Below, piece after piece: positions 4,692-24,991 of a stretch of DNA of 32,000 bases (positions are counted from its first letter, which is position 1; every line of letters starts with the position of its first letter). Source of the DNA: Halomicronema hongdechloris C2206 (GTDB lineage Bacteria; Cyanobacteriota; Cyanobacteriia; Phormidesmidales; Phormidesmidaceae); the NCBI RefSeq assembly GCF_002075285.3, contig NZ_CP021983.2, forward strand, positions 2,700,001 to 2,732,000, in the 5' to 3' direction. A program made the translations under genes and the position numbers. The notes under the pieces were generated by a model. That model searched no databases, was not told the DNA's origin, and saw only the letters and a program-made list of their open reading frames with translations.

Positions 4692-4864
4692 AGTCAGGGT
4701 GCGGCAACGACTGGAAAATGATGGCCCCATGGTCGGCCAGTAGCCACGATGGCAAACCCCATTTCCCCTAAGGTCATGCTCGCACGAAAGATTGGCGAAT
4801 TTAAGGGCAGATGCGATCGCAAATCTGATACGATAACAATTCGTGACAGCCTGAATATGTCCCT

Positions 4865-4951
4865 GGAGAGGTGGCCGAGTGGTTTAAGGCGCAGCACTGG
4901 AAATGCTGTTTAGGGGCAACTCTAACGAGGGTTCGAATCCCTCCCTCTCCG
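4865..4951 (+). tRNA. tRNA-Ser (anticodon GGA), class II with long variable arm, no encoded CCA
   Basis: Acceptor GGAGAGG/CCTCTCC; anticodon stem CAGCA/TGCTG with loop CTGGAAA; T-arm GAGGG-TTCGAAT-CCCTC; discriminator G. Confidence 0.9.
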
Positions 4952-4982
4952 TTCGCTTAGCCTCGAACATCACTCAACCAGA

Positions 4983-5622: not shown

Positions 5623-5655
5623 GAGAGCGTCATTAGAGCGTCACTAGAGCGTCAT
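5623..5655. repeat. 3 x 11-bp tandem repeat (gagagcgtcat/tagagcgtcac/tagagcgtcat)
   Basis: Read directly. It spans the stop codon of the MscS gene and the intergenic gap. Confidence 0.8.
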
Positions 5656-6765
5656 CGGCGAATCGATGTACACCGTCGGTTCCGGTACGACAAATCGCAA
5701 ATTTTGAGCGGCCAGGCGCTGGGCAATGGCAGAATTCGCCAGATCTAAGAGTCGCTTGCGTAATTCCAGAGAATTCTCGGTGGGGCTAGTGATAAAAAAG
5801 AACACCCGGGCTCGGGTGGCAGGATACTTGGGCTCATCGGTGGTGCCATATTGAACCCGGGTACTGGTCTTGTCGAAGCCCCAGAAAAAGCGGCTTTCCT
5901 GTTCGATGGTACGGGTTACCAGGGCTTGCTCGTCCACCCGTAGTTGCCTGGAAAAGTCTAGGCACAGCATGGCCATGGTCTTTTTCCCCCGGCTGACATT
6001 TTCGATGTTTTTACCGGCCATGGTGGAGTTGGGCACAATCATCATCGTGTTTTGAGCGACAATGCGAATCTTGGTGGAGCGCAATCCAATGGCTTCCACT
6101 AAGCCATAGACATCCTCTCCGTAGGGATTGAAGTTGACTCGAATGTATTCTCCAGATACATAGGGACGATCCAGATAGAGTTCTAGGGTGCCAAACAGGC
6201 GGCCTAGGGTTTGTTGAGCGGCAAAGGCAATGGCGACGCCACTGATACCAACGCTAGCGCCGAGGGCGATCAAATTCACCCGCAGGCCAATGGCAAACAC
6301 GATGATGGCCAAGATGATGATCAATACGTAGATCAAGGTTTCAAAAATCAGCACCACTTCGCTGACTTCACCAAACCAGCGATTGACCAGGCCAATGACG
6401 GAACGATGAATGATCTGGCGGGCCAGTTTGGAGGCGAACCAGATGATGCAAACAGATAGGGCGGAATAGACAAAAACGCCTAAAAAGTTGTAGAGATCCT
6501 CGTACTGAATCAGCACATTCAGGCAGATGGCAATGAAGGCGAAGGCCCCGGTCAAGGTGAGAGAATTTTGAAACGGTTGAATGTAGCTTTCATAGACCGA
6601 TTTATCATCGGTAATCTGATAGTTACCCAGTAGTTTTACCCCCCTACTGATTAGTCCCAATAACCATCGCCCCACGACGGGAGAGATGGCCACGGCCAAG
6701 GAAAATAACACTAGCCTTGTCATCAGCTCCAAGACATAGTGTAGTATTTCGCGCTCGATGGGCAT
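5644..6765 (-). CDS. Mechanosensitive ion channel (MscS family) protein
   Basis: 373 aa. N-terminal TM helices, then ...GVAIAFAAQQTLGRLFGTLELYLDRPYVSGEYIRV...GLVEAIGLRSTKIR, the MscS TM3/beta-domain signature. Confidence 0.85.
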   Translation of the reverse strand: MPIEREILHYVLELMTRLVLFSLAVAISPVVGRWLLGLISRGVKLLGNYQITDDKSVYESYIQPFQNSLTLTGAFAFIAICLNVLIQYEDLYNFLGVFVYSALSVCIIWFASKLARQIIHRSVIGLVNRWFGEVSEVVLIFETLIYVLIIILAIIVFAIGLRVNLIALGASVGISGVAIAFAAQQTLGRLFGTLELYLDRPYVSGEYIRVNFNPYGEDVYGLVEAIGLRSTKIRIVAQNTMMIVPNSTMAGKNIENVSRGKKTMAMLCLDFSRQLRVDEQALVTRTIEQESRFFWGFDKTSTRVQYGTTDEPKYPATRARVFFFITSPTENSLELRKRLLDLANSAIAQRLAAQNLRFVVPEPTVYIDSPMTL

Positions 6766-6806
6766 CGTGTCTAATCCTTCATAAAGCTGGATAAGGTGGC
6801 TATCCC

Positions 6807-7940
6807 TTAAACGTTCATCGGTTGATTGATGTCGATGATGCTTTCTTTGATATCGAAGCTGATGTCATAGACTTGCAGTTGTTGGATAATATTCTCCCGC
6901 GCCATTTCTAGGAGGCCCTTACGTAATTCCATGGACGTGGCTGTGGCCCCCAAGATGAAGAAAATCACCTGAGCCTGGACATAGGCCTGGCCCGAGGGGT
7001 CGCTGAGGGGTTCGAAAGTGACCTGGGTGAGCTGATGGTCGATGCCTAAGATATCGCGGCTGCTCTCTAGGAGCAGTTGCTCGATCAGGGCTTGTTCTTC
7101 ATTGGCCATGGAGCGCGGGAAGGTCAATGTCACCATGGAGATCACCCGTTGGGCATTGGTCAGATTCTCGATGCTCACCTGCGCCAGGTTGCTGTTGGGC
7201 ACCACCATCAAGGTATTTTTGCCGGATAGGCGAATTTTGGTGGAGCGCCAGCCGGTGGATTCTACTTTACCCAGGGTGCGGTCGGGTAGGTGAATGTGGT
7301 CGCCGACGGTGAAGGGGCGATCGATATATAGCACGATGCTCCAGAGGATCTGCTCGACGATCTTTTGGGAGCCAAATGCGATCGCAAATCCCCCCACCCC
7401 CAAACTGGCGAATAACCCCACCAGGTTATAGCGATGGGCCTGGGCGTAAAAGAAAACCACCACCAACACAATGGCGGCCTTGCTGACGAATTTACCCAGG
7501 GTCAGCAACTCGGTGTTGATCTTGGCTTCCTCTTCCAGGGTCGCCCCCAGCACATAAGTATCAAACAGTTCAGAAAACAGCTTGAACCCCAGTAATGTGA
7601 CACTGACGGCCAGCAGAAAACTCAGCAACCCCTCCAGCCCCACCAGCCAAGGGGGCATGGGATTAGCCAGCACCAGCAGATCCACGCCGGTGGCGGCAAC
7701 GGCCGCCAGCAGCCAGCCCCGATAGGGAGACACCACCGTCTGCAAGACCTCCAGAGGCTGGTCTAGCTGCAGTTGCTGGGCCCAGGGCTGAGCCAAATTG
7801 AGCCACCGCCGCCGCGAGATAGCAACCCCCCAGAGCACCCCCAACAGCACCGTCAGCCCCAGCAGCACCACGACGATGCCAATCACCACATCGGGCAAAT
7901 CGAGGCTGAGGCCAATGGCTCGTAAGAAACGCTTGATCAT
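6807..7940 (-). CDS. Mechanosensitive ion channel (MscS family) protein, tandem paralog
   Basis: 377 aa. GGFAIAFGSQKIVEQILWSIVLYIDRPFTVGDHIHL...GKVESTGWRSTKIR has the same architecture as the neighbouring gene. Confidence 0.85.
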   Translation of the reverse strand: MIKRFLRAIGLSLDLPDVVIGIVVVLLGLTVLLGVLWGVAISRRRWLNLAQPWAQQLQLDQPLEVLQTVVSPYRGWLLAAVAATGVDLLVLANPMPPWLVGLEGLLSFLLAVSVTLLGFKLFSELFDTYVLGATLEEEAKINTELLTLGKFVSKAAIVLVVVFFYAQAHRYNLVGLFASLGVGGFAIAFGSQKIVEQILWSIVLYIDRPFTVGDHIHLPDRTLGKVESTGWRSTKIRLSGKNTLMVVPNSNLAQVSIENLTNAQRVISMVTLTFPRSMANEEQALIEQLLLESSRDILGIDHQLTQVTFEPLSDPSGQAYVQAQVIFFILGATATSMELRKGLLEMARENIIQQLQVYDISFDIKESIIDINQPMNV

Positions 7941-11007: not shown

Positions 11008-11922
11008 CTATGCCCCTTTGCCGCCGGTGGCTTCCCCCAGGGCTAATCCCAGATCCCGGAAGTAGCGAATGGCTAGGACCAGCAAGATCACTGCGGAGAT
11101 GACAACCTGTAGCAGGTAAATCTGATAGGTGTAGCCAAGGGAGGGAGGGAGGTCTGCCGAGGACAGTTGCCCGAGTAGCCAGGTGTAGGGATCCCAGAGC
11201 AGTGGTCCCAGGATACAAGACTGTCGAGAAATGCAGAGATCGGTAGCACCAACCCCAAGACGACTGATGCTGGCCAGCGAGGCGTCTAACTGCCCCAGGG
11301 TGGTTAAGACTAAACCGCCCAAAACTAGCAACAGCAATCCCCCTCCCAGTTGAAAAAATCGCGCTAGGGAGAGTTGGCGACCAACCAGGGCGATGCCAGT
11401 GGCGATGGCCAGGGCTAAGGCACCGGCCAGGAGGATAGCGATCGCCATCGCTGCCAGGGGGATATCTTTGGGCAACTCCAGAGTGATGGCGATGCCCCCT
11501 TGCAGCATCAGGATACAGGTGCCACTGAATAGGCTCCAGCCGGTGGTTTCACTCTGTTGTTTGGGTGCGGCGATGCGCTCGTTCCAGTCGGCGTTGAGCC
11601 AGCGGGCTTGGCGGGCTAACCAGAGCAGAATCCAGCTGAGTAGGACCAATGCGATCGCACCGAAGAGCACCTCTAGGGAGGCACCGATAATCTCCCCTAG
11701 CTCAGGAAGTACCGGGGTGATCTGTTGTAATTCCTGTTGAAGCACCACTGCCAGTAAGCCACTACCCACACCACCAACGATCACGCCACCGTAAAGCCAG
11801 CGACCCAGGCTGGGTTGCTTGGCCTGCTCTAGGCAGGCCGACAAAATTCCCACAGTCATGGCCGCCGCCAGGCTGTGGCTTAAAAACAGCACTATTAATG
11901 GTCCCATCACACTACTAGCCAT
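11008..11922 (-). CDS. FTR1/EfeU-like polytopic membrane protein lacking both REXXE motifs
   Basis: 304 aa, about 7 TM helices. From memory, the layout and the blocks LLSWILLWL, ARFFQ and SCILGPLLW resemble cyanobacterial FTR1. No RE..E motif occurs anywhere. The start overlaps the upstream stop (TAATG). Confidence 0.55.
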   Translation of the reverse strand: MASSVMGPLIVLFLSHSLAAAMTVGILSACLEQAKQPSLGRWLYGGVIVGGVGSGLLAVVLQQELQQITPVLPELGEIIGASLEVLFGAIALVLLSWILLWLARQARWLNADWNERIAAPKQQSETTGWSLFSGTCILMLQGGIAITLELPKDIPLAAMAIAILLAGALALAIATGIALVGRQLSLARFFQLGGGLLLLVLGGLVLTTLGQLDASLASISRLGVGATDLCISRQSCILGPLLWDPYTWLLGQLSSADLPPSLGYTYQIYLLQVVISAVILLVLAIRYFRDLGLALGEATGGKGA

Positions 11923-12851
11923 TACTCCTCGGCAGCCAGGCCAATCTGCTGCAGTCGCTGATTCAAATAGGCCGCCGCTGTCCAGCGGGGAAATCGCTCC
12001 CTGCCGCCAGTACGGGCCACACAGTCAGGCTGGGGACTCAGATCCACCTGGGGCCGAGGATGGACGAAAAACGGCATCGAGAGGCGCCCCTGGCCAGATT
12101 CTGGCCCATTCACCACCCGATGAGTCGTGCTCTTCAGCCAGCCATTGGTTAGGTTCTGCAACATATCGCCCGTATCGACGATAATCTGCCCCGGTGCCGC
12201 CTGCACCGGCAACCAGCGGCCATCGCGGCTATGAATTTCCAACCCCGGTGCCGTCGCCTCACAGAGCAGTGTAATAAAATTGATGTCCTCATGGGGCGCT
12301 GCCCGTAAGCTGCCAGGGGGGGCTGCCGCGGGAACCGGGGGATAATGGGCCAGGCGCAGCACCGTCTTGCCGCCGATAACCATGTCCTGCAACCAGGTCC
12401 GCGATTGCCCTAGGTAGAGGGCACAGACCTCTAACAGTTGCGCCGCACAGGCGTCGAGTTGGCCATAGAGGCTTATCATCGCTGGCCGAAAGCCAGGCAC
12501 TTCAGCTGGCCAGGGAGCATTTGCACTCTCTAAATCGCACCGATTGACATGCCAAAATTCCTTCAGATCCGGCAGGAGGCAATCCTTGGCATGCTCCCGG
12601 CCAAAGCGGGTAAAGCCCCCCTGCCCTTTCATGTCAGGATGCTCGTATTGCAGCTTTGTCTGCAGGGGTAACTCGAAGAACCGCTGAGTCATCTCATAGG
12701 CCGAGGCAATCAGCTGGGCATCGATGCCTGGATTAGCCAAGACGAAAAATCCCACCTCTGCCAACGCCTGCCCTAAGGCATCCACAAAGTCAGCTGTCGT
12801 GGCCTCAGCCCGATAATCCTGTAAGTCAAGGCAAGGAATTGTGGAGATCAT
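11922..12851 (-). CDS. 2OG-Fe(II) oxygenase (isopenicillin N synthase-like family)
   Basis: 309 aa. LRLAHYPP, APHEDINFITLL and STTHRV give an HxD...H facial triad plus the RxS-like region. Confidence 0.85.
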   Translation of the reverse strand: MISTIPCLDLQDYRAEATTADFVDALGQALAEVGFFVLANPGIDAQLIASAYEMTQRFFELPLQTKLQYEHPDMKGQGGFTRFGREHAKDCLLPDLKEFWHVNRCDLESANAPWPAEVPGFRPAMISLYGQLDACAAQLLEVCALYLGQSRTWLQDMVIGGKTVLRLAHYPPVPAAAPPGSLRAAPHEDINFITLLCEATAPGLEIHSRDGRWLPVQAAPGQIIVDTGDMLQNLTNGWLKSTTHRVVNGPESGQGRLSMPFFVHPRPQVDLSPQPDCVARTGGRERFPRWTAAAYLNQRLQQIGLAAEE

Positions 12852-13094
12852 TCTGGCAACTGCCGTGTGAAGGCTTGGTGAAGCTATCGGCTCTTAATGT
12901 TCACTTTACCGCCTCTTTAGGCTGACCTGGGATGCTCGGGGCACTGGCCTGTCAGACGGTGATGGGTAAAAGGTTGCAGGGCAACTACTCCAGAGCCACG
13001 GATTGTCCTCACTGCCAGAGACCACAGGTCGTAAACAATGGGCGGCAAGCGATTTAATGAGCGCACCGGCACCCCAATGGCCCGCCTGCGAGCC

Positions 13095-13640
13095 CTAGTT
13101 CAGTGACAGCCACGGCGTTGAATAGCAGCGAAGGGGCGGGGGCGCGAGCGACGGGCTGCATTTTCGGGACGCCTCATTCAACGCGAGTGTCCCAGTCGTT
13201 ATCACACCCGCAAAGTCTAATGCAGATACGCCAATATGCTGCCCTATATGGAGGTTATGGAAGAACTCACACAGACTCTCAGCTCCCACTCCACGTTTGA
13301 TGCCAAACACATAGATGGCTGCCACCACCAGTCGTTTTAGCCACTGCTCGCCAGCAGAGGTTTCCCAAAACATTGAGCCTAAATTCTGATGACGACGCTT
13401 CAATGCCTGTTGATGACGAGGGACACTGCTTTTGGAAATTCCGGTGGCGGCGGCGATTGACCGAATTGTTTGAGAGCCCTTGTCTGCCAGCCTCGCTGCG
13501 ATTTGCTGATAGTGATTATCGTATCCTCGGAATCGTCTTTGAGGATACGATACTGGCCCTAGCGCTCTATCGCAGGGTTTTCCTATGTAGGCTTTTGTCC
13601 CGCTTTATGTGGATAGCCGTCAAACTTATCTTTTAGACGC
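13095..13640 (-). pseudogene. Transposase remnant: N-terminal HTH region only, no start codon, C-terminally truncated
   Basis: The minus-strand frame reads ...SYPQRRFRGYDNHYQQIAARLADKGSQTIRSIAAATGISKSSVPRHQQALKRRHQNLGSMFWETSAGEQWLKRLVVAAIYVFGIKRGVGAESL..., then degenerates. An upstream stop at about 13630 has no ATG/GTG/TTG after it before 13403. IS family not assignable by eye. Confidence 0.6.
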
Positions 13641-14061
13641 TTGATGACATTTGGAATTCATAAAAGTTGACGCCTTAAATCCCTTGATATCAAGCGTTTC
13701 GAGCTTATGGCACTTCGTCGCGGCTACCCTTCAGTTACCCCTAATATTTGATCCTTTTAGAACATTAGTTTCTTATCTCAATAAGTTACATATTTGTTAC
13801 TACTTGCAGCATCTTGGAATTCCGAATACCATCTGAAACTGTGAGGTCTTGCACAGATTTAATCGGAAAGTTAAACGGAGTTTAAAGCATAATCAACTTT
13901 TCTTTTGCAGGCTGACTGAGCTATTGGGATAGTAGCAGTTTATCTATGCTAGCTTAGTTTCTCGAAGTTGATTTTCAAGGTTACACGCGTGTTACCGATT
14001 AGGAGGTCACTTAATCGGCAACATCCGGGTATATGATTTTTTAGTAGGATGGATAACTAAA

Positions 14062-14949
14062 ATGCAGAAGCGTGTACTTGTTTACGGTGCAACAGGTGTC
14101 CAGGGAGGACCTGTTGTCAGCCAGCTTTTGAAAGCTGGATTTACGGTCAGATTATTGGTTCGAGATCGCCACAAAGCTGAGTTTTGGCAGCAAGCAGGTG
14201 CCGAACTTGCTTTCGGTGATCTGGGCGATCATCCTAGTTTGGAGAAGGCCAATAGAGACGTAGACAGAGTCTTTTTGCAGCTGCCACTAGAGTTTACTGA
14301 AACTGTCTTTGAGTATGGCAGAAACGCGATTGAGGCTGCTCAGGAAGCTGGCGTAGAATTATTAGTTTTTAACACCAGCGTACTGGTGCCAGAAGCAAAA
14401 ACTGGCGTAAAAGCTTTAGATCTCAAGCATGATGTTGAATGTTACCTCCGAGAAAGTGGCTTGCCTTACATAATTCTGCGACCCACTTTTTATATGGAGA
14501 ACTTGGCGGCTCCTTGGTCTATTCCCAGTATCATGCAGCAGGGAACGGTTGCCTATCCGATGCCGAGCGATTTTTGCGCCTCTTGGATCAGTGTTGAGGA
14601 TATGGCTGCGTATGTCGTGCAAGCCTTGAAAAATCCAGAACTAGCTGACTCAGTGTTTAACATTGGAGGACCAGAAGTGCTCGCGGCAGAGGATATTGCC
14701 AAAAAGTTCGCCCACGCTTTAAATCGTCAGATTGATTATTATCCTATCCCGCTGAATCAATTTGAAGAACAAATCAATGCTGTGATCGGGGAACCTGTAG
14801 GAACTGAGATTACAGCCTTATATCGCTGGTTTGTGACTCAGCCGCAGTCACCAGCAGCGCTCAATCTTGATTCGGTTCTACAAAAGCTGCCAGTGCAGTT
14901 AACACCGATGAAAGACTGGATTCACAAGAAGGATTGTTTTGCCGCATAG
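14062..14949 (+). CDS. NmrA-like NAD(P)-binding (atypical SDR) protein
   Basis: 295 aa. VLVYGATGVQGGPVVSQLLKAGFTVRLLVRD is a Rossmann GxxGxxG motif, and the NmrA-like length fits. Codon usage is AT-rich. Confidence 0.8.
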   Translation: MQKRVLVYGATGVQGGPVVSQLLKAGFTVRLLVRDRHKAEFWQQAGAELAFGDLGDHPSLEKANRDVDRVFLQLPLEFTETVFEYGRNAIEAAQEAGVELLVFNTSVLVPEAKTGVKALDLKHDVECYLRESGLPYIILRPTFYMENLAAPWSIPSIMQQGTVAYPMPSDFCASWISVEDMAAYVVQALKNPELADSVFNIGGPEVLAAEDIAKKFAHALNRQIDYYPIPLNQFEEQINAVIGEPVGTEITALYRWFVTQPQSPAALNLDSVLQKLPVQLTPMKDWIHKKDCFAA

Positions 14950-15005
14950 GTGAGCAGATTCTCAAATCTTCCGAGTAAGAAATTTGTTGAAAGGACTAGA
15001 AAAAG

Positions 15006-15731
15006 ATGAGTCTTTCCGATCCACCTACTGCTTTTTACTCGACAGGAATTTCAATGAATACTCTCTATGAATATCTTGAATCGAAAGAAAACAAATTCAG
15101 GCAACACTCATTCTTCAGAAACCTAAAATCTGTTGATTCCTTAAGTCAATTAGCTTTAGTGGCAGCGCAATTGTCCTTTTGGGTAATGTCTTTTCAGGAT
15201 TTGTTAAGGCTTAATATTGAGCAAGTACAAGATAAAAAACTGAGTCGCCTCTTGCGATGTCATCAAACAGAAGATGCCGGTCATGAAGAATGGTTCTTGC
15301 ATGACTTAGCAGTAATGCAAATCGCGGAACCTAGACTTCGCACACTCTATAGTCAGACACATACGCCTACTCGCGATGCCACTTATTTTGTCCTCGCACA
15401 AGTCTTTGAAGCTCAAAGTGATCACGAGCGGATTGCGCTACTACTCACAATCGAGTCAGCAGCACAGGTTTTTTTTAGTCAAGTTGCTGACTTTTCAGAA
15501 CGGCTTAAAGTCTCTAAAGACTTGATGTATTTCTCAAATCATCACTTAAACGCCGAGGAAAGCCACGATTCTCTAGATCATGATATGGAGAACTGTTTAA
15601 ACCGAATGTGGCTGACGGAAGACAAAAAGAGGATCGTTTATAGCCTGATTGATCGGGTTTATCATGCTTTCTCTATTTTGTTCGATCACTTCAATGCCAC
15701 TTTAGTGGAAAACCTTTCTGTTTCTGTTTAA
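15006..15731 (+). CDS. Heme-oxygenase-like diiron (HDO / iron-containing redox enzyme) family candidate
   Basis: 241 aa, all-helical composition. Candidate ligands are E89/D90...H93 (or H99), E150 and H180-x3-E184-x2-H187 (HHLNAEESH). An alternative start is M17 (15054). Confidence 0.6.
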   Translation: MSLSDPPTAFYSTGISMNTLYEYLESKENKFRQHSFFRNLKSVDSLSQLALVAAQLSFWVMSFQDLLRLNIEQVQDKKLSRLLRCHQTEDAGHEEWFLHDLAVMQIAEPRLRTLYSQTHTPTRDATYFVLAQVFEAQSDHERIALLLTIESAAQVFFSQVADFSERLKVSKDLMYFSNHHLNAEESHDSLDHDMENCLNRMWLTEDKKRIVYSLIDRVYHAFSILFDHFNATLVENLSVSV

Positions 15732-15821
15732 TGGATCTCTCCATTCAGAAACTTATTTGCTGTTGAATTTGAGCTTTGACGATAACGTGGACGGTATTTC
15801 AGTGAAACTTTGAGGGAAATA

Positions 15822-17075
15822 ATGGGTAATCAGTGCTCGGTAACACTATTTCTAAGCGTAGCCTCAACCCTGATGTGTTTTTCTGGTGCTGCACAGGCGG
15901 CTAGCCTGACTACCATTGCCAGTAATTTGAATAATCCGAGAGGCATTACATTTGGACCTAATGGTGGTTTGTATATTGCTGAAGCGGGTGTTGGCGGGAA
16001 TGGTATTGTTGTCCCTGCACCAGAGTTAAATTCAATTCAAACCTTTGGATTGTCTGGATCAATTACTCGTGTTCGGGATGGGGTTCAAGAACGTGTTTTA
16101 ACAGATTTACCATCGCTAGCATTAATCCCAGAAGGCGCGACCCCTCCAGAACAGGCAGGAGCTTTGCTACCTGCAACAGGAGCTCATGATATCGAGTTCG
16201 ATCAAAATGGTAATCCCTATGTGCTGTTTGGCTATGCCACAACGACGGATCAGCAAGACGCTCTTTCGGCAGTGGGTGGTGATGATCTAGGCTCATTAAC
16301 TGCCTTCAATATTAATGAGGATGACTCTTGGCAGCGCGGCGAATTTTCAATTGATTTAGTGGAGTTTGAGGAGTTAGATAATCCCGATGATGGGGCGTTT
16401 CTCAACAATCCATTTGATTTAGAGATTATAGGAGAAACGTTCTATATTGCTGATCCCGGAGGTAATAATTTTTACTCTGCGGATCTTGACGGTAATGTCG
16501 CGCTCAACGCTGTGTTTCCACCTGAAATGATTGAAGGAACTGATTTTGAGCGCGTGCCGACTTCCGTTGCTGTAGGACCAGATGGCGCTTTCTATATTGG
16601 TGAACTGACTGGCAACTTCTCACCACCGGGTAGTGCCCGAGTGCTGAGATTGCTCCCAGGCGGCGAACCTGAAGTGTTCGCGGAGGGATTTACACAAATC
16701 ATCGGCCTCGACTTCGACAGCAAAGAGAACCTCTATGTCCTAGAGTTTTCGGTCAATCCTGATGCACCGATTCCAACCGACGGTTCCGACCAAGAGTTTA
16801 CAGGTGCCCTATTCAAGGTGGCTGCGGATGGCAATCGCAGCACCGTTATTGGCCCCAACGAAGGGCTTGTAGGACCCGGCGGTATTACGGTTGGCCCTGA
16901 TGATGCGGTCTATATTTCGAATTTTGGAACTACGGTAGGCACCGGACAGGTGGTTCGAGTTGATGCTGCAGCATCTGTACCAGAGCCCTCTTCGGCTTTG
17001 GCAGTATTGAGTGTAGGAATGACTGGAGGAATCTTGCTGAAGCGACGGAAGTGGACGCCCTTAGAAACGGCCTAG
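15822..17075 (+). CDS. ScyD/ScyE-family-like beta-propeller protein with signal peptide and C-terminal PEP-CTERM sorting signal
   Basis: ATG 15822 sits 5 nt after GAGGGA. Signal peptide MGNQCSVTLFLSVASTLMCFSGAAQA; LNNPRGITFGPNGGLYIAEAGVGGNG...SGSITRV...LPSLA; C-terminal VPEPSSALAVLSVGMTGGILLKRRK. Confidence 0.7.
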   Translation: MGNQCSVTLFLSVASTLMCFSGAAQAASLTTIASNLNNPRGITFGPNGGLYIAEAGVGGNGIVVPAPELNSIQTFGLSGSITRVRDGVQERVLTDLPSLALIPEGATPPEQAGALLPATGAHDIEFDQNGNPYVLFGYATTTDQQDALSAVGGDDLGSLTAFNINEDDSWQRGEFSIDLVEFEELDNPDDGAFLNNPFDLEIIGETFYIADPGGNNFYSADLDGNVALNAVFPPEMIEGTDFERVPTSVAVGPDGAFYIGELTGNFSPPGSARVLRLLPGGEPEVFAEGFTQIIGLDFDSKENLYVLEFSVNPDAPIPTDGSDQEFTGALFKVAADGNRSTVIGPNEGLVGPGGITVGPDDAVYISNFGTTVGTGQVVRVDAAASVPEPSSALAVLSVGMTGGILLKRRKWTPLETA

Positions 17076-17325
17076 CCTTCTATAAAGGAGCGTACTGGAC
17101 ATTGCTGCTGAAGTTTGGCAGCTTTTTGTCAAAGCTGAACTTCTATATGTATGGGCTAATATTTGTTCAGTACGCTTCTACTTGCATTTTAGTTGCCGTA
17201 CTCGCAATGTCTTTAACTACTTCTAATATGGAGCGCTCTCGATTGCCCAGATATTTTTGATGTCAAAATTTGTCAGTTCACCTGTAGCTTGTAATTGCTG
17301 AAAATAGCGAACCAGATATCTGAGC

Positions 17326-17673
17326 TTATGACATAAATACAGGTTGCTGCTCATGTCTAGCTAGATAGACTTCTCCCCAATCTCGCATTGTCAGCAATAT
17401 CGGTACTAAGCTTCTGCCATATTCGGTAAGGGCATATTCCACTTTGATAGGCTCTGAATAAGCCATTCGTATAATCAGCTGATCCCGTTCTAGTTCTCTA
17501 AGTTGAAGCGTTAGAATACGGCGGCTAATACCCGGAATTTGTCTTTGGAGTTCACCAAATCGCTGTGTTCTGTCAAGTAGGCAATACAAAATATTTGGTT
17601 TCCATTTCCCAGAGATCAAGTCAACGGTCACTTTCACAGGACACGGTTTTTGTTTAGTTCGCTCTGCTTCCAC
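17326..17673 (-). CDS. HxlR-family winged-helix transcriptional regulator
   Basis: 115 aa. CPVKVTVDLISGKWKPNILYCLLDRTQRFGELQRQIPGISRRILTLQLRELERDQLI. GTG start sits 9 nt after AGGAG. It is divergent from trpE(G). Confidence 0.85.
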   Translation of the reverse strand: MEAERTKQKPCPVKVTVDLISGKWKPNILYCLLDRTQRFGELQRQIPGISRRILTLQLRELERDQLIIRMAYSEPIKVEYALTEYGRSLVPILLTMRDWGEVYLARHEQQPVFMS

Positions 17674-17903
17674 GGTTACTAGCTCCTAGCTAATTTTGAC
17701 ATCGGATCCAGCGATGCAGAAATCACTCCCTACTACAGATTAACTGTCTAAGTCATTAAAGTCTCAAATTTAGAGATTTTACTGAAAAGACCTGGTTGAA
17801 TGTCCTGTACTGGTTGTTTTTGTTATTTCAGGACTGCGCACAAGCTCATAAGCACGCCGATTTTGCTTGTCAAAAGGCCCCATCATTGACGAAGGAGATC
17901 TAT

Positions 17904-20105
17904 ATGCTTCAAGAATCTTACAGCTATCAAGTTAGGGGAAATGCTCAAGTGCGGCGCTGCACTCAAGAACTGCTTCTGGCAACTGCCCTCGACGGCCTAC
18001 TATCGCAGCTCGATCAGTATCGGGGCGGCCTCCTAAAGAGTAGCTATGAATTCCCAGGACGTTACAAACGGTGGGCGATTGGGTTTGTCAATCCTCCCTT
18101 AGAAATTTCCTCGCGGGGCAACACATTCGCCATTATAGCGCTCAATGAGCGCGGGCAAGTTCTAGTGTCTTATCTGGCGCTACACCTCTGTCGGAAACCC
18201 GAATTACGCTATCTCACTCGCAGTCAGCGTTGGATTAAGGGCACCATCCAGTTCGAGGAGCGGCCATTTCAAGAAGAGGAGCGTAGCCGTCAGCCTTCTA
18301 TATTCACACTCATTCGCTATGTGTTGGATGCCTTTCACAGTGAAGAAGATTGCTATCTGGGGCTCTATGGTGCGGTGGGTTACGACATCATTTTTCAATT
18401 TGAATCGCTCACTCAGCAGTGCGATCGCAAAGAGAATCAGCGGGATTTAATCCTTTATCTGCCGGATGATTTCTGGCTCGTTGATTACTACGCTCAACGA
18501 GCCTTCAAGGTACAGTACGAATTTGCAACTGAGTTTGGCAGCACCCACGGATTACCTCGGGATGGCGAAGTTATTGACTTTCGGGGACAGCAATTAATGC
18601 CTACCCGTCAGTCTGATCATGAACCTGGGGAGTATGCTGATCTCGTAAGACATGCCCTCGACTACTTTCGGCGCGGGGATTTGTTTGAAGTTGTGCCTAG
18701 TCAGAGCTTTTTTAGGCACTGTCAAACGGCTCCTAGTCAGCTATTTCAGACGCTGCACCAGATTAACCCTAGTCCCTACAGCTTTGTCTTCAATCTGGGT
18801 GGTGAGTATCTTGTCGGTTCGTCGCCAGAAATGTTCGTGCGAGTTGAGGGGCGACGGGTCGAGACTTGTCCCATTAGCGGCACCATTCGGCGGGGGCAAA
18901 ACGCGATCGAAGATGCTTACCAAGTTCTGAAACTGCTGAATTCTCATAAAGATGAAGCAGAACTGACGATGTGTACAGACGTTGATCGCAATGACAAATC
19001 ACGGGTTTGTGAGCCTGGTTCAGTACAGGTGATTGGCCGGAGACAGATTGAACTGTATAGCCATCTCATCCATACTGTCGATCATGTGGAGGGAACCCTC
19101 CGGCCCGAATTTGACGCGATCGATGCGTTTTTGACGCACACCTGGGCAGTGACAGTGACAGGCGCACCAAAACGGGCTGCCATCCAGTTTATCGAGCAGC
19201 ATGAGCGCAGCGCCCGCCGATGGTACGGAGGGGCTGTCGGGGGCTTCACTTTTAACGGCCATATCAATACCGGGCTGATTCTACGAACCATCTGCCTAAA
19301 AGACACGATCGCGGAGGTACGGGTGGGGGCTACCTTGCTCTATGATTCAATTCCCGAAACGGAGGAAGAGGAAACACTGACAAAAGCAGCAGCCATGATG
19401 CAAACGCTTCAGTTAGCGCAATCGGAAGAGTCGCGATCGCCTTTTCCCCAGACTCCGCCAACGGCTGCATCATTCGAGACTGGACAACGGGTGTTGTTAA
19501 TCGATTACGAGGATTCTTTTGTACACACCCTGGCCAACTATATTTGTCAGACGGGAGCACACGTGGTGACACTGCGTCATGGGTTCCCCGATTCGGTTTG
19601 GGAAATGGAACAGCCTGACTTGGTTGTGCTTTCGCCAGGACCAGGCACTCCTCGCGATTTTCACATTAGCCGAACGATTCGCACCTGCCTAAAGCGAGAG
19701 ATTCCGCTTTTTGGAGTTTGTTTAGGTCTACAAGGAATTGTAGAGACCTTTGGCGGAGAGCTGAGTTCGCTACCTTATCCACAACATGGTAAACCCTCCC
19801 GAATTTCAGTCGTAGCTGCTGACTCTCGCCTCTTTCAGAAATTGCCGCAAACCTTCGTGGCTGGGCGATATCACTCGTTGTGTGCCATGCCCGAACAAGT
19901 GCCGCCGGAGCTGAACATCACAGCCATCTCTGAGGACGGAGTGGTGATGGCCGTAGAGCATAAAACCCTGCCAATTGCTGCCGTACAGTTTCATCCCGAA
20001 TCCATCATGACGCTGGCAGAAAGTGTTGGCTTATCGATTATTTATAACGTGATGCGGACCTACGCAAAATCAGCCACGACTTCCAACCTAGTTCCGCTTT
20101 GCTAA
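17904..20105 (+). CDS. trpE: Anthranilate synthase, fused component I-component II, i.e. TrpE(G) of the rhizobial type
   Basis: ATG 17904 sits 6 nt after GAAGGAG, giving 733 aa. The N-terminal part has [67 protein letters not shown] and TVTGAPK. The C-terminal GATase part has [28 protein letters not shown] and VQFHPES. Confidence 0.9.
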
Positions 20106-20190
20106 AGGCCCCTTACATAGACGACGCAGGTTCCTTGTCATCCTTGCCATCTTTGACCGCCATGCTGTGCAACTATCGAAACTTGAGGCG

Positions 20191-21078
20191 ATGAATATTC
20201 CTTCTTCAACCTCCAATACCCTACTGCCTATTTCCTCGATCAGTCCCTCGACGGCGCAGCCCCCCGGCACAATCCTCGAAACCATCGTGCGGCACAAGCG
20301 ACAGGAAGTGATGCATCTACAGCGACAGCAATCGCTTGCAGCCATTCAGCGATGGGCAGCAGCGACTCCTCCCAGCCACGACTTTTGTGCTGCGTTGCGT
20401 CAGCATCCTAAACCGAGTCTCATTGCAGAAGTCAAAAAAGCGTCGCCGAGCCGAGGCGTGATACGAACCGACTTCAATCCGGTGGCAATCGCGGCGGCCT
20501 ATGAGCAAGGTGGTGCTGCCTGCCTGTCGGTGCTGACAGACGCTGCCTTCTTTCAGGGTAGCTTCAGGAATCTGTGGCGAGTGCGACAGCACATTGCACT
20601 ACCGCTGCTATGTAAGGAGTTCATCATTGATCCTTACCAGATTTATCTAGCGCGAGTTGCGAGAGCAGATGCAGTGCTGCTGATTGCGGCACTGCTCGAT
20701 GATGATCGTCTGCAGGAGTTTGTGTCATTGGCGAGCAATCTAGGGATGCAAGCTCTGATCGAGGTTCACACTTTGGAGGAGCTTGATCGTGTACTCTCCT
20801 TGCAGCAACTGACCCTAATCGGCATCAATAATCGCGATCTAGCCCGCTTCACCGTAGATGTTGGCATGACTGAACGGCTGTTGGCTGCCCGAGCAAACCA
20901 GATTAAAGCTGCAGATATTCTGGTCGTAAGTGAATCAGGACTACAAACCTCCGAAGATTTGCGGCGAGTTGCCGCTGCGGGAGCAGAAGCGGTCCTGATT
21001 GGTGAGTCCCTAGTCAAACAACCCGACATTAAAGCGGCTGTCCGAACCCTGCTGCACGGAGCCCATCAGGTTGCCTAA
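20191..21078 (+). CDS. trpC: Indole-3-glycerol phosphate synthase (monofunctional, no TrpF domain)
   Basis: [58 protein letters not shown] and ESG. The longest ORF starts at GTG 20167; ATG 20191 is preferred. Confidence 0.9.
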
Positions 21079-21145
21079 TCGTACGCCTGTTCACATCCGA
21101 CCAGATCGCTGCTGACTGTTGAATTGTTTATGGAGAGCCGATTTG

Positions 21146-21967
21146 ATGAACACGATCACCAATCGATTTGCCCAATTGCGAGCGCAGCGACAGTGTGCGC
21201 TGATTCCCTTCATTACAGCAGGAGATCCCAATTTAGCCACGACCCAAGCGGCTATCCAACGATTAGATCGCAGCGGTGCTGACCTGATCGAGCTGGGCGT
21301 TCCCTATACCGATCCGTTAGCAGACGGCTCCGTCATCCAAGCAGCTGCTACTCGCGCCTTACGGCGAGGGGTATATCTGGATGCAGTGCTGGATGTGGTG
21401 CGCGCTGTCAGTTCCGATATTCAGGCTCCCATTATTCTCTTTACCTACTACAACCTTATCCTTAATCGTGGTGTGCAACCTTTCCTGCAAGCGATCGCGA
21501 CTGCTGGCGCCAAGGGACTCGTAGTACCCGACCTGCCCATAGAAGAAGCTGAAGGATTAATAGAAGCGGCTAAGGTGTTGGACGTGGACGTTACCGTGAT
21601 TCTGTTAGTGGCTCCAACCAGTTCGCACATCCGCCTTCGCACGATCGCTCAAAAATCTCAGGGATTTATTTACCTGGTCAGCGTTACCGGGGTCACTGGA
21701 GTACGCAGTCAGCTACAGACAGGACTCCAATCGCTACTAGCAGAAATGCACACCTTCACCGACAAACCCATTGGCGTCGGCTTTGGCATTTCTCAACCCG
21801 ATCAAGCTCGACAACTACAGGCATGGGGGGCGGATGCGGTAATTGTTGGCAGCGCTTTTGTACAGCGTCTTGCAGACAGCTCTCCTAAAACCGGACTGCA
21901 GGCAATCGAGCAGCTCTGTCAAGATCTCAAACAAGCCATTTCTGCCACTGCAGTCTCCATGTCCTAG
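21146..21967 (+). CDS. trpA: Tryptophan synthase alpha chain
   Basis: ATG 21146 sits 8 nt after [56 protein letters not shown] and GFGIS. Confidence 0.9.
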
Positions 21968-22129: not shown

Positions 22130-23386
22130 ATGGTCAGCACCCCCAACGGAACAATAACCGCACCGTCCCTTGCCCGACCTAACGTTGCAGGGCGATTTGG
22201 TGAATTCGGCGGGCAGTATGTGCCTGAGACTCTGATGCCAGCCCTTAGCGAGTTAGCGGCAGCCTTTCACGAAGCTTATCCCCATCCAGACTTTCAGCGG
22301 ACGCTACAGCAGCTATTGAAAGACTACGTTGGACGACCGAATCCCCTCTATTTTGCCGAGCGTCTTACAGCCCACTATGCACGACCTAACGGAACAGGAC
22401 CCCAGATTTATCTCAAACGCGAAGACTTAAACCATACGGGCGCTCACAAAATCAATAACGCGCTGGGGCAGGTGCTACTGGCTCAGCGCATGGGGAAACG
22501 ACGCATCATTGCCGAAACTGGAGCCGGGCAGCATGGGGTGGCAACAGCGACGGTATGCGCTCGCTTTGGCCTACAATGTGTGATTTATATGGGCGTTCAC
22601 GATATGCAACGGCAGGCGCTCAACGTCTTTCGGATGCGGCTGATGGGAGCTGAAGTGGTGCCAGTCGAGGCAGGTACTGGCACCCTCAAAGAGGCTACCT
22701 CAGAAGCCATTCGTGACTGGGTAACGAATATTGAGACAACCCATTACATTCTGGGTTCGGTAGCTGGTCCCCATCCTTATCCCATGATTGTGCGGGATTT
22801 TCATGCCGTGATTGGTCAGGAAACTCGGCGTCAGTGCCAGGAAAAGTGGGGAGGCTTGCCCAATATCTTGCTGGCCTGTGTTGGCGGCGGGTCCAACGCT
22901 ATGGGCCTGTTTCACGCGTTTGTGGAAGAGCCCTCGGTACGGCTAATGGGGATAGAAGCGGCGGGACAAGGCGTTTTGTCCGGCAAGCATGCAGCGACTC
23001 TGACACAAGGCCGAATTGGGGTGCTGCATGGTGCGATGAGCTACCTGTTGCAGGATGAGCATGGTCAGGTGCTAGAGGCTCATTCCATCAGTGCCGGGCT
23101 GGACTATCCTGGCGTGGGTCCAGAGCACAGCTATTTCAAGCAGAGTGGACGAGGCGAATACGACAGCGTCACAGATGAGGAAGCTCTCGCTGGACTGCAG
23201 CGGTTGTCTCGTCTTGAGGGCATCATTCCGGCACTAGAAACAGCTCACGCGATCGCCTATCTTGAAACGCTCTGTCCGCAGCTCAGCGGCAATCCTCGCA
23301 TTGTGATCAACTGCTCTGGACGTGGCGATAAAGATGTCCAAACCGTGGCGAATGCGCTGCAAGCCACTGAGTTTTCAAGTCTCTAA
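22130..23386 (+). CDS. trpB: Tryptophan synthase beta chain
   Basis: 418 aa. [31 protein letters not shown] (PLP lysine), ETGAGQHG and [18 protein letters not shown] lies 8 nt upstream. Confidence 0.95.
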
Positions 23387-23438
23387 ATGTTTGATCGCGG
23401 TAGCACGCGATCGCTTTTCCCTGCCCCCTTACTTACCG

Positions 23439-24530
23439 ATGACCATGATGACAACCTCTCTCCAATCTATGCCTCAACCTGCCATCAGTCTCCAGACCTG
23501 GCAGGAGATCCTGCACCGCTTGTTAGAGCATCGCTCTTTATCGGTAGAGCAGGCCGCTAGTTTAATGCAAGGCTGGCTGCAGGAAACTATCTCGCCTGCT
23601 CTTTCTGGCGCAATTTTGACTGCAATTCAAGCGAAGGGCGTGTCTGCGAGCGAACTGGTGGGAATGGTGCAGGTGCTGCAAGAGCGAGCCGTGCAGAGTC
23701 ACCCTCGCGTAGATACCCATCCCGTTGTTGACACCTGTGGTACGGGCGGTGATGGCGCTTCGACCTTCAACATTTCAACGGCGGTGGCTTTTGTGGTAGC
23801 CGCGGCTGGCGTCAAAGTTGCCAAGCACGGTAACCGCTCCGTCAGCAGCAAGGCGGGTTCAGCCGACGTATTGGAGGCTCTGCGCATTGATTTAGGCGCT
23901 AGCCATCAAAGAGTGGAAGCCGCTTTGGATGAAGTTGGCATCACCTTTTTGTTTGCACCTGGTTGGCATCCTGCCTTCAAAGCGGTGGCTCCTATCCGTA
24001 AAACGCTAGGCATTCGGACCATTTTCAACGTACTCGGACCGCTGCTGAATCCTCTAGGGCCCACAGGACAGGTAATTGGAGTGTCCGATCCGGCCCTGGT
24101 TGAGCCTGTAGCTGAAGCGATTGCCCGCTCTAGTGACCGTCATGGGGTGGTGGTATACGGACGAGAGCACTTGGATGAGGCTGGCTTAGCAGACCTGTCT
24201 GATGTGGCGATCGTGAATGATAACCAGATTGATGTAACCACTGTCAATCCTGATCATCTGGGGTTAGCAGCCGCTCCTACTGCAGCCCTTCGAGGCGGCG
24301 ACATCCGCACTAATGCAGACATTCTCAAAGCTGTTTTACAGGGTCGAGGCACTCAGGCACAGCAAGATGTGGTGGCCCTCAATGCAGCGATGGCACTGTA
24401 CGTCGGAGAGGCGATCGCCGGGGTCACTGTTCATGAGGCGTTTGAGAAAGGAATTCAGGTCGCTTACTCAATTCTGAGGAGTGGTGCAGCTTGGCAAAAA
24501 CTAGAACAGCTTGCTCAGTTTTTGGCATAA
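23439..24530 (+). CDS. trpD: Anthranilate phosphoribosyltransferase
   Basis: [38 protein letters not shown] and [12 protein letters not shown] 23439 gives 363 aa. The longest ORF (from 23322) would overlap trpB by 65 nt. Confidence 0.9.
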
Positions 24531-24539
24531 ACGTACAGA

Positions 24540-24905
24540 GGACATTGTCAACTTGAATGCTGTGGTGCCCTTTGTCGGTGTCTGTCAGGGGTAAGCCGAT
24601 GCCGGTCAGTTACAAATATCACCGATTTCCCATTGCGATCATTAGTCACTGCGTCTGGCTTTACTACACCTTTTCCCCTCAGCTACCGCGATATCGAAAA
24701 GATGACGCTTTATCGCGGCATTGAGGTGACCTACGAGTCGATCCGCAAGTGGTGCAAAAAGTTTGCTCAAGTCTATGCGAACCAGGTCCGTCGCCGTCGC
24801 CCCAAATCGAGAGATAAATGGCATCTCGATGAAGTCGTGATCACGATTAAGGGCCAGCAGTATTACTTGTGGCGAGCTGTAGACGCGGACAGTCAGGTCA
24901 TCGAC
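24540..24905 (+). mobile_element. IS6-family insertion sequence remnant: left inverted repeat plus frameshifted, 3'-truncated transposase
   Basis: Candidate IRL GGACATTGTCAAC at 24540. From ATG 24599: MPVSYKYHRFPIAIISHCVWLYYTF, then (+1 frame at the T4C4 run 24671-24678) PLSYRDIEKMTLYRGIEVTYESIRKWCKKFAQVYANQVRRRRPKSRDKWHLDEVVITIKGQQYYLWRAVDADSQVID. This matches the N-terminal half of IS26-like Tnp and is lost after about 24905. Confidence 0.75.
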
Positions 24906-24991
24906 AAAGATACTTACTCCACCACCCCCAGCACCGTAATCTTGATCCGCGCTAGCTGACTCCTCAACCTGGCCCATTCCCTGTAAGTCAG

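Follow-up and report, generated by a model that had tools for sequence, protein, structure and literature searches.

The 32,000-nucleotide (nt) stretch of Halomicronema hongdechloris C2206 DNA analysed here (contig NZ_CP021983.2, positions 2,700,001 to 2,732,000 of the forward strand; the window) contains an open reading frame (ORF) of 241 amino acids (aa) that very probably encodes a diiron oxidase with a heme-oxygenase-like fold (HDO) of the lineage to which the nitrile synthase AetD and the skatole synthase SktA belong, and which is predicted to be cytoplasmic. The gene sits in the middle of a small conserved operon, between the gene for an NmrA-type NAD(P)H reductase and that for a ScyD/ScyE-family protein that is secreted and bears a PEP-CTERM signal, and on balance the enzyme probably acts there on an aromatic L-amino acid, by analogy Trp, with an indole-derived product as the outcome. 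The position of this operon next to a redundant-looking trp operon suggests that such a product is finished outside the cell.

Assignment to the AetD lineage is carried by sequence and by fold. Searched as a single sequence against all PDB chains the protein has AetD as its sole significant match (E 1.1e-7), and this covers the full length, as would be expected for an HDO of the AetD/SktA type. With a family profile built from 25 homologues, which were drawn from 5.8 billion proteins, the match to AetD reaches E 1.7e-19 (residues 1-225 against AetD 11-243), with no other chain below 0.08. Since the homology spans the whole protein, the metal ligand pattern set out below is not a chance match. 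An AlphaFold2 model made on the family alignment is all-helical (predicted local distance difference test score 87.7, predicted template-modelling score 0.84), and when it is compared with the PDB by Foldseek the top 17 matches are all chains of AetD (template-modelling score 0.70-0.79, E ~2e-6 to 2e-5). Next, at E of 8e-4 or weaker, come an unnamed heme-oxygenase-like protein, CADD, TenA, BesC, HamA, UndA and PqqC, and the matches to AetD, CADD, BesC, UndA and TenA all have a probability of 1.00, so the model and its matches display the seven-helix heme-oxygenase-like bundle of the HDO superfamily. The helical fold is shared with UndA, BesC, CADD, SznF, HamA and TenA/PqqC, and the site of three histidines and three carboxylates with the HDOs among them; in contrast to AetD, none of these has sequence similarity detectable in the profile search, their Foldseek E-values are at least 100-fold weaker, and the order of the ligands to the first iron in the other HDOs is unlike that in AetD and the window protein. 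A preliminary description, made from the letters alone, had proposed an HDO-type enzyme, with AetD and a Trp-derived substrate as the analogy, and had named a Foldseek comparison and the Pfam families Haem_oxygenas_2, DUF3865 and TenA/PqqC as checks; AetD turns out to be the single closest solved relative in both kinds of search.

The ORF itself was described accurately. The opposite strand is closed by many stops across the same interval, and the motifs and residue numbers quoted in the preliminary description are exact when checked against the translation. The product is a 100% match to the deposited H. hongdechloris C2206 protein XM38_025630, which is annotated as 225 aa starting from M17. 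Most homologues begin at the Met equivalent to M17, and residues 1-17 are disordered in the model. The 16-residue, Ser/Thr-rich and poorly conserved extension is missing from most homologues and yet present in the three closest, and an AGGA-like sequence precedes both candidate ATGs, so the start codon is ambiguous between 15006 and 15054. Residue numbers here are those of the 241-aa version.

The metal site was compared in an alignment of 33 sequences that includes AetD. In AetD the first iron (Fe1) is held by H79, H172 and E176 together with the N and O of the substrate, the second (Fe2) by D76, E140, E176 and H179, and the Ala variants of these iron ligands are all inactive (PMC10654658). 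Column for column D90, H93, E150, H180, E184 and H187 of the window protein align with AetD D76, H79, E140, H172, E176 and H179, giving the full set of three histidines and three carboxylates on the three core helices, the spatial convergence of which is implied by the fold match; these six would form the predicted diiron site. The alignment with AetD bears out E150, H180, E184 and H187 as first proposed, and of the carboxylate-histidine pairs E89/D90 and H93/H99 it selects D90 and H93: E89, invariant in the family, aligns with AetD E75, which is not a ligand, and H99 is not conserved. The window protein and all of its relatives found in the same operon context retain all six ligands.

That the protein is instead TenA-, PqqC- or CADD-like, or inactive, is highly improbable in the light of this conservation. 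The idea can draw on relatives labelled 'TenA family transcriptional regulator' or 'iron-containing redox enzyme' in UniRef and other sources, on Foldseek matches in the E range 1e-3 to 1e-2 to TenA, CADD and PqqC, and on a Nostocales subclade of the same family in which three ligands have been lost. However, the six ligands are intact in the window protein and in every operon-associated relative, the matches to AetD are far stronger than those to TenA, CADD and PqqC, and no Pfam model for TenA, PqqC or DUF3865 is reported for the protein at E up to 10.

Conservation around the predicted site is also that of an AetD-like enzyme. Y175 occupies the column of AetD Y167, which hydrogen bonds the substrate carboxylate, and F63 that of AetD F48, both being invariant in the 25-member family. 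In SznF and RohS the F63 column is the place of an additional, seventh Glu ligand, and since a Phe replaces this Glu, Fe1 is probably left open for chelation by the substrate as in AetD; an open Fe1 site combined with a carboxylate-binding Tyr is what marks HDOs of the AetD/SktA type, and both are seen in the alignment. W59 stands at AetD F44, which pi-stacks on the indole. AetD S214 touches the 7-Br of its substrate and SktA has Phe (F214) there (PMC13108848); the window protein has F222 in this column, has F156 for AetD I146 and A152 for AetD A142, and carries I149 and A152 at the positions of SktA T139 and T142. The replacements of S214 and I146 by Phe suggest a pocket that is all-aromatic, tighter than that of AetD and with no provision for a 7-halogen. 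Model confidence falls to 71-81 across residues 181-210, the segment after the ligand helix, and this fits the metal-dependent ordering of the AetD core helix alpha-3, which is flexible in AetD.

Overall, then, the window protein shares with AetD of Aetokthonos hydrillicola (the aetokthonotoxin nitrile synthase; PDB 8ji2-8ji7, 8twn/8twt/8tww, 8zvg/8zvh) the fold, full-length homology, the H-H-E order of ligands specific to Fe1 of AetD, a Phe in place of the SznF Glu, the carboxylate-binding Tyr, the indole-stacking aromatics and the low-confidence helix, and differs from it in pocket residues (S214 to Phe, I146 to Phe, F44 to Trp). With SktA it shares lineage and the Phe at position 214 of AetD; SktA accepts unhalogenated L-Trp and also belongs to a small cyanobacterial cluster of three genes. 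Carriers of the T139/T142/F214 signature, in contrast, fall in the AetD-proximal family, and the window protein has I149 and A152.

By sequence the protein belongs to a large uncharacterised sister family of the AetD-proximal group. Exhaustive profile searching returns 658 clusters (at 50% identity) at E <=1e-3, of which 199 are found at <=1e-30, from cyanobacteria, more than 50 Legionella-lineage genomes and myxobacteria. A sizeable number of members fuse the HDO domain with a Trp_DMAT-type prenyltransferase and/or a FAD_binding_4/cytokinin-dehydrogenase-like oxidase, in proteins of 580-1080 aa with the domains in either order (P0085, P0102, P0104, P0143 and many other representatives; P0085 comes from a metagenome-assembled genome of Myxococcota, and one Myxococcota fusion is annotated as a tryptophan dimethylallyltransferase family protein). 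By a Rosetta-stone argument the Trp_DMAT fusions point to an indole or aromatic substrate for the family.

The Nostocales subclade that has lost metal ligands (P0016-P0022, for example from Anabaena subtropica, L009/L031, and at L021, L030 and L104) has D90 changed to Q, N or K in 7/7, H187 to Y in 6/7 and H180 to N in 4/7, with E150, E184 and Y175 retained, and may be a mononuclear or non-catalytic derivative; in Anabaena subtropica the ligand-poor gene adjoins a DUF2358/SnoaL-like gene and a gene for an inward-rectifier K+ channel. Around 50 genomes of Legionella, Fluoribacter and Tatlockia, among them L. pneumophila subsp. fraseri and L. longbeachae (L039-L094), and also Reyranella, contain an operon, conserved genus-wide, in the order VioC/KMO-like FAD monooxygenase, HDO, FAD_binding_4/cytokinin-dehydrogenase-like oxidase, usually with an O-methyltransferase nearby. 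This operon points to an aromatic or indole metabolite of most legionellae. In Mastigocoleus testarum BC008 (L107, 10001-13569) the gene for a close relative of the window type of HDO (P0038, 43% identical) has ~700 nt behind it one for an aminodeoxychorismate synthase in which PabA and PabB are fused (TIGR00553, 366 bits, cut-off 328), a second and differently built link of the family to chorismate-utilising enzymes.

In the window the HDO gene is the second of three (Table 1). No terminator-like site lies between the three genes, and the only one on the forward strand in 12800-18000 follows the third, so the NmrA-like, HDO and ScyD/E-like genes appear to make up one operon. PDB relatives of the NmrA-like protein are 5f5l/5f5n (deposited as 'Monooxygenase'; 1e-24), triphenylmethane reductase, HSCARG and E. 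coli YtfG, and its match to the ergot EasG family is weak (61 bits, far under the cut-off). The third protein is recognised firmly by the ScyE family model (279 bits, cut-off 80, E 5.9e-83), has a signal-peptide-like N-terminus as read from the sequence and ends in a PEP-CTERM sorting signal, VPEP...KRRK (TIGR02595, 22.5 bits, cut-off 16), so that a secreted PEP-CTERM ScyD/ScyE-family protein, one component of the scytonemin system, is indeed encoded here. The HxlR-family regulator gene beyond the terminator has the redox regulators RrpA and RrpB as its best NCBIfam matches, both under cut-off.

Upstream of the NmrA-like gene lies a conserved element that is probably, as judged from the sequence, the promoter and operator of this module. 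It overlaps a -35-like TTGCAG with a -10-like TACCAT 17 nt downstream, and belongs to a 21-nt block, ACATwwTTGTnnCTrCTTGmA, that 6 module loci, their flanks otherwise unalignable, carry at a distance of 113-514 nt upstream of the NmrA-like gene; the window has a single occurrence, the chance expectation being 0. Perfect 6+6 palindromes were absent from the intergenic regions beside HxlR, except for one at L014, and an Rfam search of the whole window returned a tRNA-Ser only, with no riboswitch or leader before the trp or module genes.

Base composition sets the module apart, the guanine-plus-cytosine content (GC) being 46.8% for the NmrA-like gene, 39.9% for the HDO gene, 48.7% for the ScyD/E-like gene and 42.5% for the HxlR gene, while the trp genes are at 51-55% and most other genes of the window at 57-63%. 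The low module GC together with the fragment of an IS240-type transposase at the downstream edge of the block suggests an acquired, island-like module. Differing GC and the frequent presence of insertion sequence (IS) elements at the flanks of the module make it possible that its origin is not that of the trp operon.

Table 1. Features of the window discussed in the text; residue numbers are those of the 241-aa HDO
Feature	Coordinates	Strand	Details
tRNA-Ser (GGA)	4864-4952	+	sole Rfam or ARAGORN match
Two tandem MscS-type mechanosensitive channel paralogues	5644-7940	-	373 and 377 aa
2-oxoglutarate (2OG)-Fe(II) oxygenase and FTR1-family iron permease genes	11008-12851	-	DIOX_N + 2OG-FeII_Oxy (oxygenase)
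Conserved cis element ACATATTTGTTACTACTTGCA	13788..13808	+	upstream of NmrA-like gene; predicted promoter and operator
NmrA-like NAD(P)H-binding reductase (atypical short-chain dehydrogenase/reductase)	14062..14949	+	first module gene; Pfam NmrA 2.6e-46, NAD_binding_10
HDO gene	15006..15731	+	241 aa; alternative annotated start 15054 (M17)
Predicted substrate contacts of HDO			W59, F63, F156, Y175, F222
Secreted ScyD/ScyE-family beta-propeller (NHL-repeat) protein	15810..17075	+	NCBIfam NF033206 ScyE_fam, Pfam NHL
Terminator-like hairpin and T-run	17104..17132	+	ends the NmrA-HDO-ScyD/E operon
HxlR-family (DUF24/MarR-like) regulator	17326..17673	-	N-terminal Cys; divergent from trpE(G); Pfam HxlR 7.6e-30
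Fused anthranilate synthase TrpE-TrpG (TrpE clade 3)	17796..20105	+	TIGR01815 1139 bits (cut-off 739); Pfam Chorismate_bind + GATase
trpC, indole-3-glycerol-phosphate synthase	20167..21078	+	Pfam IGPS 5e-86
trpA, tryptophan synthase alpha	21119..21967	+	Pfam Trp_syntA 4e-86
trpB, tryptophan synthase beta	22130..23386	+	TIGR00263 608 bits (cut-off 392)
trpD, anthranilate phosphoribosyltransferase	23322..24530	+	TIGR01245 387 bits; later start probable
IS240-type transposase fragment	24633..24959	+	downstream edge of block; Pfam DDE_Tnp_IS240, positions 3-32 of 139 only

The order NmrA-like, HDO, ScyD/E-like recurs in at least 8 distinct loci with HDO identities of 44-74%, where flanks are visible, and the NmrA-like gene lies directly upstream of the HDO gene in every module locus with a visible 5' flank. 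A ScyD/E-like gene follows the HDO gene in the window and at L001/L016, L002, L008/L098, L012/L013, L015, L096 and L108, and is interrupted by an IS element at L014; the homologue at L012 scores 290 bits with NF033206. Among loci with enough flank the window as well as L001/L016, L002, L008/L098, L012/L013, L014 and L015 have an HxlR gene alongside the module. In Vasconcelosia (Romeria) LEGE 07310 (L001/L016) the whole block NmrA-HDO-ScyD/E-HxlR-trpEG-C-A-B is kept at 57-79% protein identity behind a different upstream flank, Vasconcelosia and Halomicronema belonging to different families of Nodosilineales. At L012/L013 genes for EboA, an EboB-like TatD hydrolase and EboC (NF035940, 385 bits, cut-off 250) come directly after the module, at L014 a Phosphodiest gene without an NCBIfam match, which could be EboF, stands beside it, and at L015 and L008 its neighbour encodes a response regulator with receiver and AraC-type domains. 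Module copies elsewhere are often flanked by IS elements, and the L008/L098 contig also carries the plasmid genes Mob and Toprim. On the same contig two copies (49% identical; L008 997-1307 and 5848-6258) of a 136-aa ORF that has no family match bracket the HxlR-NmrA-HDO-ScyD/E module and may be a repeat that marks a mobile cassette.

The earlier description of the trp operon as lying next to the HDO gene holds approximately: the start of trpE(G) is 2.06 kb downstream, and the ScyD/ScyE-family gene and the divergent HxlR gene lie in between. The trpD ORF as called mechanically, from a GTG, shares 65 nt with the end of trpB (23322-23386), and because its Pfam and NCBIfam matches start only at residue 61-65 the true start is probably downstream of 23322; trpE(G), trpA and the ScyD/E-like gene, which are listed with TTG starts, probably have their true starts elsewhere too. 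Among the window ORFs of at least 100 aa, the scope of all such absences reported here, none has the PRAI domain of TrpF and none has a halogenase or FAD-monooxygenase domain, and so the clustering with a tryptophan halogenase that goes with AetD/SktA-type enzymes is not seen in the window.

From the alignment with AetD and the published behaviour of AetD and SktA a reaction may be sketched. A free aromatic L-amino acid, most likely unhalogenated L-tryptophan, would chelate Fe1 (H93, H180, E184) through its N and O, with Y175 hydrogen bonding the carboxylate and the ring packing among W59, F63, F156 and F222, whilst Fe2 would be held by D90, E150, E184 and H187. Substrate binding would then trigger O2 activation to a peroxo-diferric species, which may oxidatively cleave or rearrange the 2-aminopropionate side chain. 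The HDO would thus be the oxidative step of an operon otherwise consisting of the NmrA-type NAD(P)H reductase and the secreted PEP-CTERM ScyD/ScyE-family protein, with the HxlR regulator alongside, and in Halomicronema the adjacent, apparently auxiliary trpE(G)CABD operon would supply the substrate. An indole-derived product would probably be reduced by the NmrA-like enzyme, finished outside the cytoplasm and handled there by the ScyE-like protein. An indole or aromatic substrate is supported because of the Trp_DMAT fusions, the trp link in a second genus and the use of Trp by both characterised relatives.

Several observations weigh against this assignment of reaction and substrate, and some bear on the lineage itself. 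The best Pfam match of the protein is indeed to PF14518 Haem_oxygenas_2, but at 22.2 bits (E 1.4e-4) it stays below the gathering threshold of 28.9 bits, the remaining two matches of that scan being spurious; precomputed Pfam annotation is blank ('-') for all family members but one, and the NCBIfam search is empty up to E 10. Identity to AetD is 19-25%, and to more than 120 AetD-proximal members, including carriers of the SktA signature, 17-25%. These members come from a search seeded with one AetD-proximal protein, which returned 170 relatives, none of them named as from N. punctiforme NIES-2108, and SktA was stood in for by its published T139/T142/F214 signature and not by its own sequence. 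In a neighbour-joining tree a long branch separates the window protein, in a clade of its own, from the AetD-proximal group, and by sequence it clusters with neither AetD nor SktA. With identity at ~17-25% and a separate clade, the AetD or SktA reaction type is not transferable. Crystals of AetD with L-Tyr and L-Phe exist, according to PDB titles, and so an aromatic pocket is no proof of Trp. The trp operon stands beside the module in only two related genera; elsewhere its place is taken by ebo genes, by a response regulator of the AraC type or by IS elements. Finally, pairs of an HxlR regulator and an NmrA-like reductase, such as YtfH/YtfG of E. coli, are also common as stand-alone electrophile or quinone response units.

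The only characterised enzymes of the AetD lineage are AetD and SktA (PMC11869266; review PMC13108848), and both use Trp and accept it unhalogenated. SktA from Nostoc punctiforme NIES-2108 is an O2-dependent skatole synthase turning Trp into skatole, HCN and CO2, and gives a product different from that of AetD although the two are 39% identical (PMC11869266). It could be supposed that the window enzyme simply repeats one of these reactions, as a nitrile synthase (Trp to indole-3-carbonitrile) or a skatole synthase, with its neighbours tailoring or detoxifying the product. The identical ligand set, the Tyr anchor, the stacking aromatics, the equivalence of F222 with SktA F214 and of A152 with AetD A142, and the shared acceptance of unhalogenated Trp all fit, but identity of 17-25% across a clade boundary, in a lineage where product is poorly conserved even at 39%, makes such isofunction quite improbable. 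Partners differ as well: aet and skt clusters carry halogenases, P450, tryptophanase and flavin monooxygenase (PMC11869266), the skt cluster specifically a Trp halogenase and a flavin monooxygenase, whereas no halogenase, P450 or tryptophanase is found near the window gene and its partners, NmrA-like and ScyD/E-like, are wholly unlike those of either cluster.

A different function for the same fold and diiron chemistry is that the module is a redox or electrophile stress unit under HxlR control, its trp adjacency being an accident of island insertion in Nodosilineales. The HDO would then act on something other than tryptophan, for instance on a different aromatic amino acid, on a precursor of a quinone or phenol, or on a cell-envelope component handled by the secreted beta-propeller. 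As in YtfH/YtfG an HxlR gene stands beside an NmrA-like oxidoreductase gene; the HxlR regulators with an N-terminal Cys best match redox regulators, and triphenylmethane reductase and the quinone oxidoreductase YtfG are among the proteins that the NmrA-like one resembles. In most copies of the module no trp operon is adjacent, module GC is 40-49% with IS flanks frequent, and the Mastigocoleus relative lies beside a pabAB-type aminodeoxychorismate synthase instead. Even so a stress unit is rather unlikely. Both the Tyr that anchors the amino acid and the open Fe1 site have been retained, Trp_DMAT fusions occur elsewhere in the family, the nine-gene block has been kept in two families despite different flanks, and AetD and SktA both use Trp; further, the pair in the module without exception encloses an HDO and a secreted protein of the ScyD/E type, two genes that simple detoxification pairs do not have.

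The proposed action on Trp, with an indole-derived product finished outside the cytoplasm, may be compared with the scytonemin system. In Nostoc punctiforme this comprises scyABCDEF, redundant aromatic amino-acid genes, the ebo cluster and a two-component regulator (PMC6282210, PMC7997468, PMC12188702), arranged as four gene modules in which ScyABC makes a cytoplasmic monomer, the aromatic genes supply Trp, ebo exports the monomer and a two-component system regulates (PMC7997468). Here too a PEP-CTERM ScyD/ScyE-family protein adjoins biosynthetic genes and a redundant-looking trp operon lies in the block, and related loci have EboA/EboB/EboC or a response regulator with AraC output, so that counterparts of modules I (late part), II, III and IV can be named. 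In contrast, neither ScyA (a thiamine diphosphate enzyme) nor ScyB (Leu/Glu-dehydrogenase-like) nor ScyC is found among the window ORFs, and the HDO and NmrA-like reductase stand where monomer-forming enzymes would be. Genes tyrA, aroG and aroB are absent from the window block, the ScyF model is reached at only 19.5 bits (cut-off 350), and there are no ebo genes in the window. It is tempting to see the module as central to a second route in cyanobacteria, independent of scytonemin, by which an indole-derived compound such as a pigment or sunscreen might arise outside the cytoplasm, but this specific idea is unlikely to be right. It would have the HDO and the NmrA-type reductase take the place of ScyA/B/C and turn tryptophan into a reactive indole monomer, ebo export this monomer, and the PEP-CTERM ScyE-like beta-propeller couple or deposit the product extracellularly, with the dedicated trp operon and, in some genomes, the AraC-type response regulator serving the pathway.

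Among the other genes of the window, the 2OG-Fe(II) oxygenase and FTR1 pair upstream, whose stop and start overlap by one base, was considered as part of the module and set aside, having host-like GC, with the oxygenase not found beside the module in Vasconcelosia or at the other loci. Farther upstream lie the tRNA-Ser gene and the MscS-type channel paralogues (Table 1).

The enzyme class is already known, as is the existence of uncharacterised cyanobacterial AetD homologues: Adak et al. list many 'of unknown function' (PMC11869266). The searchable literature contains no recognition of the sister family, of the NmrA/HDO/ScyD-E/HxlR module, of its cis element or of its placement with trp, ebo or AraC-type regulator genes; in it ScyE is not found together with NmrA, ebo, HxlR and HDO are combined only in scytonemin papers, and nothing ties H. 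hongdechloris to scytonemin production. AetD (nitrile) and SktA (skatole and cyanide) form unrelated products from nearly the same substrate, and since their products diverge at 39% identity and the sister family is much larger, a third reaction type in that family is quite possible. The module itself is open to direct testing, being compact (three genes, a regulator and a recognisable promoter element) and carried by a cultured strain whose genome is finished, and its predicted substrate is cheap. Its repeated pairing with a ScyE-like protein, ebo genes and a trp operon would moreover offer a second system in which to study the roles of ScyD/E-family proteins and the ebo cluster.

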